A stretch of 32,000 bases of DNA from Deinococcus radiodurans R1 = ATCC 13939 = DSM 20539 (GCF_000008565.1 NC_001263.1:1820603-1852602), one strand, 5' to 3'. Numbered from the stretch's first letter, positions 11,951 to 24,734 are shown. Numbers and translations are program-made. The notes: generated by a model not told the origin, from the letters alone.

Positions 11951-12238
11951 ATGGACATGCAGGCCCTACGGGGGCACCGACAGGCGATAGACGCCCTGGC
12001 CCGGCGTCATGGGGTGGCCGACCTGCGGGTGTTCGGCAGCACGGTCCGGGGCACCGCGAGCCCGCAGAGCGACCTTGACCTGCTGGTGCGGCTGGAAACG
12101 GGCCGCAGCCTGCTAGACCGCGCCGCCTTCCGCGCCGACCTGCAAGACCTGCTGGGCCTGCCGGTGGATGTGGTGAACCCCGCCACGCTGCACCCCCTTA
12201 TCCGGGACCGCATTCAGCGCGAGGCGCAACCGCTTTGA
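11951..12238 (+). CDS. mntA: MNT-type nucleotidyltransferase, antitoxin of a HepT/MNT type VII TA pair
   Basis: 95 aa with FGSTVRGTASPQSDLDLLV, which matches the G-S-x10-D-x-D minimal nucleotidyltransferase motif. Confidence 0.8.
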   Translation: MDMQALRGHRQAIDALARRHGVADLRVFGSTVRGTASPQSDLDLLVRLETGRSLLDRAAFRADLQDLLGLPVDVVNPATLHPLIRDRIQREAQPL

Positions 12239-12639
12239 ACGCCGGCAAGAATCCCGCCCTGTACCTCGCGCAAATGCTGGACAGCGCCGAGGTCATAGCG
12301 GAGTACCTCGGCGGCGACGTACAGAATTACCGGGACAGCCGCCTGATTCGGGACGCCGTTCACCGCAATCTGGAAATCATCGGTGAAGCCGCCAAGCGTT
12401 GCCCGGAAGCCACCCGCGCCCAATACCCCGATATTCCCTGGCGCGGCATGGCAGGCCTGCGCGACGTGCTGATTCACGACTATGACGGCACAGACCCCGA
12501 AGAAGTGGTGCCGGTGTTGACCGAGCATTTGCCCCGGCTGCGCGAACAGTTGACAGTGGCCCTGAAACGGGAAGCCTTCCTCGCCGTGCTGGACAAAGTG
12601 CCCGACGCCCCGCCCCTCCCCGGCGACGAACTCCCGTAA
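12235..12639 (+). CDS. hepT: HepT (DUF86) HEPN-domain RNase toxin
   Basis: 134 aa with RDVLIHDY, matching the HEPN R-x4-H-x-Y motif. The TTG start overlaps the MNT stop (TTTGA). The start could instead be the downstream ATG (MLDSAEV). Confidence 0.8.
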   Translation: MNAGKNPALYLAQMLDSAEVIAEYLGGDVQNYRDSRLIRDAVHRNLEIIGEAAKRCPEATRAQYPDIPWRGMAGLRDVLIHDYDGTDPEEVVPVLTEHLPRLREQLTVALKREAFLAVLDKVPDAPPLPGDELP

Positions 12640-12723: not shown

Positions 12724-14025
12724 ATGACAGCAATTGTTGAACCCACTTGGGAAGAAAGGCGTACGCCGGAAGCTGCTCATGAGGATGATGCGCGCAGTCA
12801 ATACCGTAAAGACTATTCAAGAATCATACACAGTGCAGCTTTGAGGAGATTACAAACTAAGACACAAGTGTTAGGTCTAGGAGACAGCGATTTTTATAGA
12901 ACCCGCCTGACGCATTCTCTTGAAGTTGCTCAAATAGGTGTAGGTATCTTATTAGAAATTCAAAGAAGGTTCGCGGGCTCAAACATTGAAAAGTATTTAC
13001 CAGACGAGAGACTTCTAGAAGCTATATGTCTCTCTCATGACTACGGTCATCCTCCTTTCGGCCACGGAGGAGAACGTGCACTAAACTTTGCCATGCGTGA
13101 GTATGGAGGATTTGAAGGCAACGCTCAGACGTTTAGGATACTTTCCAAACTAGAAAAATACTCACAGAATTCTGGATTGAATCCAACACGTCGAACGCTA
13201 CTAGGAGTTCTAAAGTATCCTACTACCTATTCCAATTCCATGACAAACGACTTTAGGAGAGGTACAGATATTGATAAGTATCCTGATGCCGAACTTAAAC
13301 CACCAAAATGTATATATGATTGCGATCTAGACGTCTTAGACTGGGTGCTCAAAATTTTTTGCTCAGAGGATGTCACAGAATTTAAGAAGTTAGATTATAA
13401 GTGTAAACCCTTACATAAATCCTTGGATTGTAGCCTTATGGAGACCGCAGATGATATAGCATATACAGTACATGATTTGGAAGACTGTATAAAACTTAAG
13501 CTTATCAATCGCGAGATGTGGGATGCGTATATAAAGTCCGCAGATTATTCAGAGGCTACACGACTTGAGATAGAAAAATGGAATCAAAGAATATTCTCTA
13601 AAGAGGGCAATTTAGTTAAACAGGGCATAAGCAATATGGTCTACTTTTTTATACATTCGGTTATTCAATATGAGCACGAAGAACTTAGCCATCCTATTCT
13701 TAAGTACGGGTTCAAGTTAGGGGAAGAGGCAGCACGCCTTAGAAGCGCCATTCAAAAAATCATAACTAATGAAGTGATCAAGACCCATCGCGTTAGGGTT
13801 CTTGAGAGCAAAGGTCAGAGAATGATTTTTTCTATATTTGGAGAACTTGTTAGAGATCCTGAATCCTTTTTACCCAGGGAAACACTTGATAAGTACAACA
13901 AAGCCACCGGAAACCTTAGAATGCGAGTTATATGTGATTATGTTTCGGGCATGACAGACGAGTATGCTACTAAGACTTACCAGAGGTTTTTTACACCCAA
14001 ATTTGGATCTGTATTTGATGTTTAA
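12724..14025 (+). CDS. dgt: dGTPase-family HD-domain deoxynucleoside triphosphate triphosphohydrolase, encoded in a low-GC island
   Basis: 433 aa with [64 protein letters not shown] and a C-terminal [11 protein letters not shown]. All are characteristic of the Dgt family. Sampled lines 13261 and 13621 are 33% and 37% G+C by hand count. Confidence 0.85.
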
Positions 14026-14029
14026 AAGA

Positions 14030-14055
14030 GGCAGCCCCCACCCCCGGAGGCTGCC
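14030..14055. terminator. Hairpin between convergent dgt-like gene and gcvP
   Basis: GGCAGCC (14030..14036) pairs with GGCTGCC (14049..14055). A T-rich CCTTTCCTTATTTCC stretch follows on the plus strand. Confidence 0.45.
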
Positions 14056-20683: not shown

Positions 20684-21430
20684 TCAGCGGCGGCGGCCCG
20701 TGACGAACCACGCGGCGGCGGCGGCGAGGAAGCCTACGCCCACGTAGCTCCAGAGGTTGGGGCCACGGTTTTGCTGCACGACCACCGGAGTGTTGCCGGG
20801 CGCGCCGCCGGGGTTGACGTTGTTCACCACCACGTCCGGCCCGTCGAGGGCGTCGGCGACGCTGCTCACGGCGGTGAAAATCAGCGCGTATTTCAGGATG
20901 TCGTAGCCGATGCCGTGCTGGCGGTAGTAGCTCTGCGGGTAGGGGTAGTAGCGGCCCGGCTCCAACTGGTAGCGGTACTGGCTGCTCGGGGTGGCGCTGT
21001 AGGTGATGGCATTGCGCGGCACCCCGGCGGGCAGCTTGACACTCTTCCAGTTGTTGAGCTGCGTGGGTTTGACCTGGGCGGCGGCGGCGCGGTTGGCCGC
21101 GTTGTTCGCCACCGTGCGGTTGCTCGGCAGGGTGCTGCGCTGCGTGGTGCTGGGCGTGCGGGTGGTGCCGGACCCGGCGGGCGGCGCGGTGCGCGGGCGG
21201 GTGTAGGTGCTGCCCGAGGACGAGTTGGCGGGCGGCGTATATCGGGGCGTGGACGGCGTGCGGTAGGTAGGCGTGCTGGGGGAACGGTAAGACGGCGAGC
21301 GGTACGACCCACCATAAGACCCGCCCGAGCTGCGGCTGCCGCCAAACCCCCCACCGCTGCGGCGGCCCGCATCGGCCAGGCCACTGCCGAGGGCCAGGCC
21401 CGTTAGAAGAAAGACGAGAGCGCGTTTCAT
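20684..21430 (-). CDS. Signal-peptide protein with an S/P/T/R/Y/G-rich low-complexity region and a C-terminal hydrophobic anchor
   Basis: Start at the internal ATG 21430 ([21 protein letters not shown]). Contains [43 protein letters not shown]. The C-terminus reads [23 protein letters not shown]. The stop is 1 nt from the MTHFS start. Confidence 0.55.
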
Positions 21431-21562
21431 CACTCCAACAGTACGCAGCGAGGCAGGCAAAAGTTCCGCTTCCCCCGCGAGGACAGGTCAACAGTCAAGG
21501 GGGGATGAACACGACCTAGACGCCTCCCCCTCTCCCCTGCCCGCCGGGTCTACACTCCGGGC

Positions 21563-21640
21563 ATGACGGTTCAGCGCGCGCCCCTGTGCCCCCACTGCGG
21601 CGAGTTCGGCTTTTATTGGTTCGGTTCCCACCGGGCCTAG
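21563..21640 (+). CDS. Candidate aromatic-amino-acid leader peptide, 25 aa: [25 protein letters not shown]
   Basis: ATG 21563 to TAG 21638..21640. Codons 21605..21622 read TTC GGC TTT TAT TGG TTC (F G F Y W F). There is no SD. TACACT (21551..21556) lies 6 nt upstream of the ATG. A terminator and the DAHP synthase gene follow. Confidence 0.5.
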
Positions 21641-21660
21641 CCTCGCGCTGTTTTTCCCCG

Positions 21661-21702
21661 CCCGGTGACGCCCCGCAAAGGCTCGCCGGGTTTTTCTTTT
21701 TT
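21661..21702 (+). terminator. Intrinsic terminator (attenuator) upstream of the DAHP synthase gene
   Basis: CCCGGTGA (21661..21668) pairs with TCGCCGGG (21683..21690), 8 bp, plus an inner GCC/GGC extension. TTTTTCTTTTTT follows at 21691..21702. There is no upstream plus-strand gene to terminate. Confidence 0.7.
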
Positions 21703-21741
21703 CCCCAGCTAAATAACCCAGATAAAAAAGGACGTGTTCCC

Positions 21742-22827
21742 ATGACCCAGCCCCCCGCCCCCTCTACCACCGAAAACCTCAACGTGACCGGCTTCACGCC
21801 GCTGATGACCCCGCGTGAACTCAAGGCCGAGGTGCCGCTGACCGACGCTGCCGAGCGCACCGTGCTCGCCGGACGCCGGGCGGCGCAGGCCATCCTGAGC
21901 GGCGAGGACGACCGCCTACTGGTGGTTGTCGGGCCGTGCAGCATTCACGACCAGGCGCAAGCGCTGGAGTACGCCGGGCGGCTCGCGGCGCTGCGTGAGC
22001 GGGTGAAAGACCGGCTGGAAGTGCAGATGCGCGTCTACGTGGACAAACCGCGCACGACGGTGGGCTGGCGCGGCTACCTGCTCGACCCCGACATGGACGG
22101 CAGCAACGACATGGGCAAGGGCGTGCGCCGCACCCGCGAGCTGATGGTGGCGGTGAGCGAACTCGGGCTGCCGGTGGCGACCGAACTGCTTGACCCCTTC
22201 GCGCCGCAGTACCTCTTCGACGCCGTAGCCTGGGCCTGCCTGGGCGCGCGCACCGCCGAGTCGCAGACCCACCGGGTAATGGCGAGCGCCGTCAGTGCCC
22301 CGATGGGCTTCAAGAACGGCACCGGCGGCGGTATCAAGCTCGCGGTGGACGCGGTGGTGGCCGCCAGTCACCCGCACGCTTTTTTCACCATTGACGAAGA
22401 TGGGCGCGCCGCGATTGTCCACACCAAGGGCAACGCGCACGGGCACGTCATTTTGCGCGGCGGGCGTGCCGGCCCCAACTACGCCCCGCAGTTCGTGCAG
22501 GAAGCAGCAGACCTGCTGCGCGCGGCGGGCCGCGAAGAAGCCGTCATGGTGGACTGCTCGCACGCCAACTCGGGGTCGGACTGGACCCGGCAGCGCTTGG
22601 TGTGGCGCGACGTGCTGGGCCAGCGCCTCGCCGGACAGCGCGCCATCCGGGGCGCCATGCTGGAGAGCAACCTGCAAGCCGGCAAACAGAGCCTGCCTGC
22701 CGACCTCACGCAGCTCAAGCCCGGCGTGAGCGTCACCGACGCCTGCGTGGGCTGGGACGAAACCGAGGCCCTGCTGCTGGAGGCCCACGAACAGCTCAGT
22801 GGCCGCGCGGCACTGGCGACCTGCTGA
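21742..22827 (+). CDS. aroG: 3-deoxy-7-phosphoheptulonate (DAHP) synthase, class I (AroF/G/H type); feedback specificity unknown
   Basis: Starts [33 protein letters not shown] and contains [24 protein letters not shown] and DCSHANS. Start at ATG 21742 preceded by AAGGA. Confidence 0.9.
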
Positions 22828-23637: not shown

Positions 23638-23820
23638 GTGGCAAACCGTGAGAAATCTTCCCCTGCAAAGAGGCCCGGCGGCGGGCGGCCCCCCAGCGAG
23701 CGGCCCAGCAAAATCTGCGCGCGCTGCGGCCTGCCCTTTTCTTGGCGTAAGAAATGGGAGCGCGACTGGGACAACGTGCGCTACTGCTCGGAGCGCTGCC
23801 GCCGGGGAGGAACGGCATGA
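23638..23820 (+). CDS. DUF2256 small zinc-ribbon protein
   Basis: The C-terminal [35 protein letters not shown] is the DUF2256 signature. The start is uncertain: GTG 23638 is proposed, and the track ORF begins at 23470. The stop overlaps the uvsE ATG. Confidence 0.6.
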
Positions 23821-24734
23821 CCTCGGCCTGTGAAGCCGTGCCGCAGCTCGGGCTGGTGTGCCTGACGGTGGGGCCGGAGGTGCGCTTCCGCACGGTCACG
23901 CTCAGCCGCTACCGTGCGCTCTCGCCTGCCGAGCGCGAAGCCAAGCTGCTCGACCTGTATTCGAGCAACATCAAGACCTTGCGGGGGGCCGCCGACTACT
24001 GCGCGGCGCACGACATCCGGCTCTACCGACTGAGTTCGAGCCTTTTTCCCATGCTCGACCTCGCGGGCGACGACACCGGGGCCGCTGTGCTCACGCATCT
24101 AGCGCCGCAACTGCTGGAGGCCGGGCATGCGTTCACCGACGCGGGCGTGCGGCTGCTGATGCACCCCGAGCAATTCATCGTGCTCAATTCCGACCGGCCC
24201 GAGGTGCGCGAGTCGAGCGTGCGGGCCATGAGTGCCCACGCCCGCGTGATGGACGGGCTGGGGCTGGCGCGCACGCCCTGGAATCTGCTGCTGCTCCACG
24301 GCGGCAAGGGCGGGCGCGGCGCTGAGTTGGCGGCCCTGATTCCCGACCTGCCCGACCCAGTACGGCTGCGGCTGGGTCTGGAAAACGACGAGCGGGCATA
24401 CAGCCCCGCCGAGCTGCTGCCCATCTGCGAGGCGACCGGCACGCCGCTGGTCTTCGACGCGCACCACCACGTCGTCCACGACAAGCTTCCCGACCAGGAA
24501 GACCCCAGCGTGCGCGAGTGGGTGCTGCGCGCGCGGGCGACGTGGCAGCCCCCGGAGTGGCAGGTTGTCCACCTCAGCAACGGCATCGAGGGGCCGCAGG
24601 ACCGCCGCCACTCGCACCTGATTGCCGATTTTCCGAGTGCCTACGCCGACGTGCCCTGGATCGAAGTCGAGGCGAAGGGCAAGGAAGAAGCGATTGCGGC
24701 GCTGCGGCTGATGGCGCCGTTCAAGAAAGACTGA
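23817..24734 (+). CDS. uvsE: UV damage endonuclease UvsE (UVDE)
   Basis: [29 protein letters not shown]...[12 protein letters not shown]...LLMHPEQF...LGLENDE...FDAHHH follows the UVDE TIM-barrel pattern. Start at ATG 23817 within the track ORF 23754..24734. Confidence 0.9.

Follow-up and report, generated by a model that had tools for sequence, protein, structure and literature searches.

In the trpL attenuator of Escherichia coli, a short leader open reading frame (ORF) with two Trp sensor codons is combined with exclusive 1:2, 2:3 and 3:4 RNA helices, and helix 3:4 is the terminator. In this study, we analysed a 32,000-nt window of Deinococcus radiodurans R1 DNA (NC_001263.1:1820603-1852602; coordinates are 1-based in this window), and focused on the leader that precedes the gene for 3-deoxy-D-arabino-heptulosonate 7-phosphate (DAHP) synthase. 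The original prediction, made from the sequence alone, had described a short ORF with many Phe, Tyr and Trp codons, together with terminator and antiterminator alternatives, upstream of this gene. Judging from its sequence and from its orthologues, this leader is very probably a classical ribosome-mediated (leader-peptide) transcription attenuator that controls the DAHP synthase gene.

The locus resembles trpL in several respects. Both have a short leader ORF with sensor codons and four segments that form mutually exclusive 1:2, 2:3 and 3:4 pairings. In each, segment 1 overlaps with the sensor codons, segment 2 would be blocked by a ribosome that has reached the stop codon, and helix 3:4 is an intrinsic terminator and the most stable helix in a similar ranking of energies. 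In contrast to trpL, the Deinococcus leader appears to lie on a leaderless mRNA with no Shine-Dalgarno (SD) sequence, and it carries a mixed Phe/Tyr/Trp sensor instead of two Trp codons. Its segment 2 falls within the last three codons of the ORF, and an outer helix (helix A) is added around the sensor region. The target also differs, being the DAHP synthase gene and not the trp operon, and the leader has no match to the Rfam family Trp_leader.

The closest functional analogue is the aroR leader before aroF in Corynebacterium glutamicum, a precedent that the original prediction had named correctly. According to the summary of Neshat et al. 2014 in PMC11802643, aroR has a Phe-Tyr-Phe sensor with no Trp codon, and reportedly responds to Phe and not to Tyr. 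As described there, it is likewise a leader-peptide attenuator with mixed aromatic codons before a DAHP synthase gene, and it is the sole experimentally studied case of this target that we found. The Deinococcus leader adds an invariant Trp codon to the sensor given in that summary. The two leaders belong to different phyla with no evident sequence relationship, and they are likened here by their described features.

Leaderless leader peptides are also on record in the genus itself. In D. deserti, a -10-like motif was found directly 5' of 94% of transcription start sites with no conserved -35 element, and 47% of mRNAs begin at the start codon and have no 5' untranslated region (PMC4007540). 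The same paper (de Groot et al. 2014) lists 14 putative leader peptides translated from leaderless transcripts, with cysS and trpEGD as the only examples given by name in the main text. Our locus belongs to the same genus and has the same layout, with a -10 box right in front of a 5'-AUG and a short ORF, enriched in cognate residues, that precedes an amino-acid biosynthesis or tRNA synthetase gene. A further likeness is to the poly-Cys short ORFs of mycobacteria (bioRxiv 10.1101/834739). These Cys-responsive attenuators reportedly have a leaderless first cistron in which a ribosome on the cognate codons senses supply; the amino acid and the phylum are different.

Anatomy of the DAHP synthase leader

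The leader ORF occupies 21563..21640 on the plus strand and has 25 codons, from ATG 21563 to TAG (21638-40). Its sensor codons F15, G16, F17, Y18, W19 and F20 are located at 21605..21622, with the conserved core F-(F)-Y-W at 21611-21619. Among the 777 small ORFs of the window (10-40 amino acids, six frames), this was the sole case of five aromatic residues within a run of six. Codons for the end products of the pathway are thereby placed in a short ORF directly 5' of a biosynthetic gene. This gene (21742..22827, plus strand) has an SD-like AAGGA at 21728-21732 and belongs to the type I-alpha DAHP synthases (aroF/G/H class), as indicated by NCBIfam TIGR00034 (431.7 bits) and NF009395 (476.3 bits) and by Pfam PF00793 in its homologues.

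An intrinsic terminator was found between the leader ORF and the gene, and the hairpin is present in all orthologues. Its 5' arm, segment 3 (GCCCGGUGA-c-GCC; 21660..21672), pairs in the minimum free energy (MFE) fold with its 3' arm, segment 4 (GGCUCGCCGGGU; 21680..21691). Specifically, G21660-A21668 and GCC 21670-72 pair with 21680-21691, forming a 12-bp GC-rich stem of -21.2 kcal/mol that is followed by the U-tract U5CU6 (21691..21702), the tail of the terminator. The hairpin at 21660-21691 went undetected by a simple terminator scanner because of the single bulged C21669, and MFE folding was used instead. The gene 5' of the leader (20684-21430) is divergent and lies on the minus strand, so there is no plus-strand gene for this terminator to terminate, as had been claimed.

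Segment 2 (CACCGGGCC; 21629..21637) comprises the final three sense codons and has two alternative partners, segment 1 and segment 3. We found that 21629-21636 (CACCGGGC) is the exact 8-bp complement of 21660-21667 (GCCCGGUG), and the latter stretch doubles as the 3' strand of the antiterminator. The antiterminator therefore shares a strand with the terminator, and its other strand ends 1 nt short of the leader stop codon, where a ribosome at the stop would occlude it. When the ORF was shuffled 20,000 times, an 8-bp complement to the terminator 5' arm appeared in the last 15 nt of the ORF in 0.16% of the shuffles.

The MFE fold of 21563-21705 holds two further helices. Segment 1 (GGUUCGGU; 21618..21625), made of the last two bases of the Trp codon and the next two codons, pairs with ACCGGGCC (21630-37) of segment 2 in a 1:2 hairpin, an anti-antiterminator that overlaps the sensor codons. 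Around this hairpin, the long-range helix A joins CAGCGCG (21572..21578) to CGCGCUG (21644..21650), which is followed by a U-rich run, and provides a second lock beside 1:2. The whole leader folds with a z-score of -2.26. Together with the aromatic cluster and the 8-bp complement, this goes beyond what chance would be expected to give. On re-reading the sequence, all coordinates in the original prediction were correct (the ORF, the FGFYWF cluster, the terminator, U5CU6 and TACACT), and the 8-bp complementarity stood exactly as described. Its inventory of helices was right for 2:3 and 3:4, and had overlooked the 1:2 anti-antiterminator and helix A.

Conservation of the leader in Deinococcus

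To assess the conservation of the aromatic codon cluster, which the original prediction had named as a check, species-representative genomes with DAHP synthase were scanned (39 Deinococcus loci and 41 outgroup loci). A leader ORF of 15-21 codons with the core (A)FFYW(F)xxxRA-stop was flagged at 37/39 Deinococcus loci. The two unflagged loci are L027, which has a degenerate leader (MSPRAAFPCWPRFLRV), and L038, which has too little upstream DNA. D. sonorensis, whose enzyme is 63% identical, has the element as well, and so do a 99% relative of the window, D. deserti and 5 metagenome contigs. The leader is thus kept in more than 45 Deinococcus genomes and metagenome contigs, and every instance is located 5' of DAHP synthase. 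No comparable ORF was found at any of the 41 outgroup loci, whose enzymes are 47-57% identical.

Aromatic mini-ORFs in the outgroup (L054, L066, L072) were only sporadic and were rejected. The one at L072:2724-2860, from an uncultured gammaproteobacterium, ends in ...REAFFYFFT before a DAHP synthase homologue and may be an independent Phe/Tyr leader. The metagenome contigs came from a scan with the invariant nucleotide signature, which gave 81 matches. Five are genuine leaders, all followed by DAHP synthase, and the other 76 were dismissed as chance; ten of them were inspected (including the recurring MWFYWMKTCRV and MGTSFRHFYWNEIRRA) and lie inside ordinary coding sequence.

The geometry of the leader is fixed at its 3' end. 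Every locus places its Trp codon exactly 24 nt short of the end of the ORF, even though ORF length ranges from 15 to 25 codons, and the ORF closes with CGG-GCC or CGG-GUC and a stop codon. The long N-terminus of the window peptide (9 extra residues) and its CPHC motif are lineage-specific, since the orthologues mostly have 16 residues and unrelated N-termini.

Several divergent versions were seen. In D. maricopensis (L082:1356-1500), the leader is rearranged (MRASFVYFAWWFT), and its WW codons pair with a segment 3' of the stop codon. Truepera radiovictrix (L081:1373-1500) has a doubtful, Trp-free Y-F-Y mini-ORF (MTGTVYFAGYRLG) with a clean terminator, and the switch is ambiguous there. These two versions suggest an old origin of the attenuator in Deinococcales, with later remodelling. 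Eroded sensors with retained helices occur at L027:2818-2868 (MSPRAAFPCWPRFLRV) and L016:2809-2874 (MTRRPMTRCGAFLSWFGSRRA), and the free RNA of L027 favours the antiterminator. Regulation may be relaxed in these two species.

Predicted leaderless start

The TAnnnT-type -10 box TACACT (21551..21556) lies 6 nt 5' of ATG 21563. Both this spacing and the missing SD had been pointed out for the window. Across the set, the distance from the end of the TAnnnT box to the leader ATG is 6 nt (26 loci) or 7 nt (13 loci), and the Deinococcus leaders examined all lack an SD. Because of the box at 6 nt, the transcript is predicted to be leaderless and to start at or next to A21563, which matches the description of leaderless genes in D. 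deserti. The conserved ATG and reading frame, the TAnnnT box and the leaderless translation known in the genus lend indirect support to a predicted translation of the leader ORF.

Folding of the leader under three ribosome states

The fold energies, a further check named at the outset, are -11.4 kcal/mol for 1:2, -17.2 kcal/mol for 2:3 (-13.7 for the bare 8-bp helix) and -21.2 kcal/mol for 3:4. We folded all 39 leaders in three states, in which the ribosome occupied the stop codon, was stalled at Trp, or was absent (free RNA). A ribosome at the stop codon left the terminator in 39/39 leaders and the antiterminator in 0/39. In the stalled state, with Trp in the A site and the transcript ending short of segment 4, 37/39 leaders formed the 2:3 antiterminator. 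Free full-length RNA formed 1:2 together with the terminator in 37/39 leaders. The terminator/antiterminator logic of the original prediction is thus reproduced by folding across the genus.

Pairing was counted on a gapless anchored alignment (A2); a MAFFT alignment (A1) was dropped because it put part of the terminator out of place in the L031-37 clade. For the 2:3 antiterminator, 76.4% of cells are paired, compared to at most 48.6% in any slid register. Shuffles gave 14.9 +/- 3.2 cells changed on both sides and a covariation score of 0.095, compared to the observed 27 and 0.160. None of 500 shuffles came up to the observed percentage of paired cells, number of double-change cells or score. 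In L031-35 the antiterminator is UUCCGGGC/GCCCGGAA, and its AA falls inside the terminator loop. This indicates that the complementarity of segment 2 is kept apart from the symmetry of the terminator and is not its by-product, a point that does not depend on the shuffle control. L025 and L027 carry a triple change (CUCCGGG, CCCGGAG, CUCCGGG).

The other helices are also conserved in register. In the terminator, 76.9% of cells are paired (at most 42.6% when slid), and in 1:2 the value is 87.2% (72% when slid by +1, and at most 52% in the other registers). Pairing in 1:2 survives changes from UU to CC, and RNAalifold recovered the cores of both helices. Helix A, with at least 5 bp between the 5' part of the ORF and a segment after the stop codon, was found in 40/40 leaders, and its complementary sequences are clade-specific.

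Codon choice in the leader

All leaders (40/40) have CGG as their penultimate codon, whereas coding sequence mostly uses CGC, and CGG makes up 22% of the Arg codons in the neighbouring gene. This indicates a constraint at the RNA level. The Tyr codon of the leader is the rare TAT in 38/45 cases, compared to 19/240 in the adjacent DAHP synthase genes, and the Phe codon TTT is enriched in leaders as well. Rare sensor codons reportedly sharpen attenuation in the Salmonella leu leader, and by analogy the rare TAT offers a lead towards a similar effect here.

Proposed mechanism and alternative explanations

We propose that a promoter consisting of the -10 box only would start transcription at the A of ATG 21563 or at a neighbouring base, and that a 70S ribosome would translate the 25-codon leader without an SD. 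With plentiful aromatic amino acids, charged Phe-, Tyr- and Trp-tRNA would be abundant, and the ribosome would reach the TAG, where it would lie over segment 2 and over the 3' strand of helix A. This would leave segment 4 as the only partner for segment 3, and RNA polymerase would terminate near 21700. If the ribosome has left or was never loaded, helix A and 1:2 would sequester segment 2, and lack of translation would lead to termination because of this lock. When any of the aromatic amino acids is scarce, the ribosome would stall on the F-(F)-Y-W codons, cover segment 1 and the 5' strand of helix A, and stop short of segment 2. A ribosome with Trp in the A site is expected to occlude about 11-13 nt downstream, so that segment 2, which starts 12 nt after the U of UGG, would be just free. 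Segment 2 would pair with segment 3 (8 bp) once the latter has been made, the terminator would be blocked, and the polymerase would read into the DAHP synthase gene.

Our preference for attenuation is based on the anatomy, the conservation, the fixed geometry, the three-state folding, the covariation of 2:3, the codon constraint, the leaderless start and the C. glutamicum precedent. The leader probably senses charged Phe-, Tyr- and Trp-tRNA. That termination takes place, and that read-through responds to aromatic supply, is what we infer from these features.

Several results weigh against this reading. No match to Rfam was obtained at gathering score in the whole window, and nothing relevant was obtained at E <= 10 on 21480-21760; the leader falls outside the Rfam leader families (Trp_leader, Phe_leader, His_leader and others) and the T-box. 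Compensatory changes, which the original prediction had proposed to look for in both helices, were found in 2:3, but the shuffle control ignores phylogeny, and the 0/500 obtained there is supportive and not a probability. They were not significant in the terminator (111/500 shuffles), nor was covariation in 1:2 (29/500), because the cores of these helices (CCGGGC/GCCCGG, GG/CC) are invariant. The fifth aromatic codon (UUC after UGG) belongs to segment 1 and is CCC, GCC, GUC or CCU in several species. It is probably structural, because a ribosome that has this codon in its A site would lie over part of segment 2, and the sensors would then be F-(F)-Y-W. Finally, the 9 nt after the stem contain at least 6 U in 23 of the 40 leaders, 4-5 in 14 and at most 3 in 3. 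Termination efficiency is uncertain in the species with weak U-tracts (17/40), in 3 of which the tract is nearly absent.

These U-tracts, one of which has no U at all (L022), raise the alternative that the switch is real and acts by a route other than intrinsic termination, such as Rho-dependent termination, mRNA stability or downstream translation, in which case the hairpin would chiefly mark a site of pausing or processing. Even the species with poor U-tracts keep the leader ORF and both helices, as this alternative would have it. However, the window terminator is canonical in stem and tail, most of the orthologues (23/40) have at least 6/9 U, and weak U-tails on hairpin terminators are common in high-GC bacteria. 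Furthermore, the SD of the DAHP synthase gene is located at least 36 nt 3' of the hairpin and is not sequestered. We therefore consider such a route unlikely, although it may operate in species with weak U-tracts. Non-ribosomal control of the terminator, whether by an RNA-binding protein, by tRNA in a T-box-like manner or through a small-molecule riboswitch, would make the aromatic mini-ORF incidental. Aromatic genes are regulated in such ways in other lineages, as by Bacillus subtilis TRAP and by T-boxes, and a conserved CTAGAC box upstream of the leader can be taken as a sign of at least one more factor at the locus. The Rfam search at E <= 10 gave nothing relevant, T-box included, and the locus has no (G/U)AG repeat arrays. 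The start codon, the frame, FFYW and the exact Trp-to-stop distance are kept in more than 45 genomes while the N-terminus varies freely, which argues that the mini-ORF is not incidental, and such an aromatic cluster occurs in only 1/777 small ORFs of the window. Control of this kind is very unlikely.

The CPHC motif in the window peptide had led the original prediction to name a stable small protein as an alternative. The ORF would then encode a product with its own function, for example through a CPHC redox or metal motif, and the hairpin would merely be its terminator. Leader peptides with trans functions are known, such as peTrpL of Sinorhizobium. But CPHC and the 9 extra residues occur in this lineage only and the orthologues are mostly 16 residues long, the C-terminus is fixed at synonymous positions (CGG in 40/40), pointing to selection on the RNA, and the window peptide is absent by exact match from a collection of 15 billion proteins. 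This explanation is the least probable of all, slightly below non-ribosomal control. Attenuation by a translating ribosome remains the reading that we favour.

Relation to annotated leaders

The protein collection holds one N-terminally extended orthologue, named only 'hypothetical protein'. At the DAHP synthase locus of D. deserti, the orthologue MKLRSAFFYWFGVPRA is called as a 16-aa gene upstream of ACO46835 in a public record, contrary to the original prediction, which knew of no case in Deinococcus. Such a call is absent from three other NCBI Deinococcus/Trueperaceae records. Given this difference between the records, the 14 leader peptides predicted for D. deserti in 2014 probably include the one before DAHP synthase. 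We found no published description of the RNA helices, the covariation or the genus-wide conservation, nor a mention of the peptide, in the literature searched. The kind of mechanism is classical attenuation, which is already known, and the leader class had been predicted in the genus in 2014.

This element would let Deinococcus control the committed step of aromatic synthesis in the absence of a known repressor. It represents an unusually clear genus-wide case of putative classical attenuation on a leaderless mRNA, in which the ribosome must load on a 5'-AUG and match the pace of RNA polymerase without an SD. With its mixed F/F/Y/W sensor in a fixed geometry, the leader also lends itself to tests of whether three amino acids are sensed together (multivalent sensing). 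The element is worth annotating since gene callers miss it, and it could be used as an aromatic-responsive expression switch in Deinococcus engineering.

The CTAGAC box and a sibling trp leader

A CTAGAC box is located at 21516..21521 on the plus strand, and its start is 47 nt before the leader ATG. We found CTAGAC 47-50 nt 5' of the ATG in all 41 Deinococcus DAHP synthase leaders examined and in D. deserti, and also at L177:1296-1301. The box lies too far 5' for a -35 element, and it may be an operator or promoter element. Two other copies in the window, at 12113 and 13327, were rejected as operators because both lie inside coding sequence.

The box recurs at a second leader of the window, on the minus strand (633-447). 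Here CTAGAC (633-628) is exactly 47 nt before the ATG at 586, the same distance as in the DAHP synthase leader, and TACCTT (598-593) is 6 nt before it. The leader peptide is MLTRRTSWWPRSRWV, with its stop codon at 541-539. It is followed by the hairpin CGCCCCGG/CCGGGGCG and UUUU, and then by an SD and the ATG (447) of trpE (PF04715), which runs off the window start. By its sequence, 633-447 is a sibling leaderless trp attenuator. Two further trp leaders were found, one with CTAGAC (L085) and one without it (L086), and no leader was seen at the Trueperaceae trpE locus L087. When 303 kb of Deinococcus DNA were scanned, the pattern CTAGNC-N24-31-TAnnnT-N5-8-ATG occurred only at the DAHP synthase leaders and the trp leader of the window, while CTAGNC alone occurred 184 times.

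These observations raise the possibility that a shared regulator of an aromatic regulon recognises CTAGAC, and the shared box is a lead towards an undescribed regulator. More tentatively, two stacked layers may govern entry into the shikimate pathway: a multivalent attenuator reading all three aromatic tRNAs, and a factor binding the CTAGAC box. If this were true, a single attenuator would replace the three-isoenzyme, three-repressor logic of E. coli. The DAHP synthase and trp leaders would then form a small aromatic regulon under dual control, reminiscent of TrpR and attenuation in E. coli.

Other features of the window

The DAHP synthase frame is open upstream to GTG 21586, spanning the terminator and part of the leader, so gene callers could over-extend the N-terminus of the enzyme. 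ATG 21742 is favoured as its start by homologues and by the SD. In D. sonorensis, a UV damage endonuclease gene (UvdE family, PF03851, L083:3066-3983) is located just 3' of the DAHP synthase gene. The ORF in the equivalent position of the window (23754-24734, plus strand) looks like the same UvdE-family gene, and synteny would then be conserved. Elsewhere in the window, the region of about 13290-14030 is strongly AT-rich compared to the genome (about 66% GC). It adjoins a nucleotidyltransferase-like ORF pair near 11960-12380 and may be horizontally acquired.

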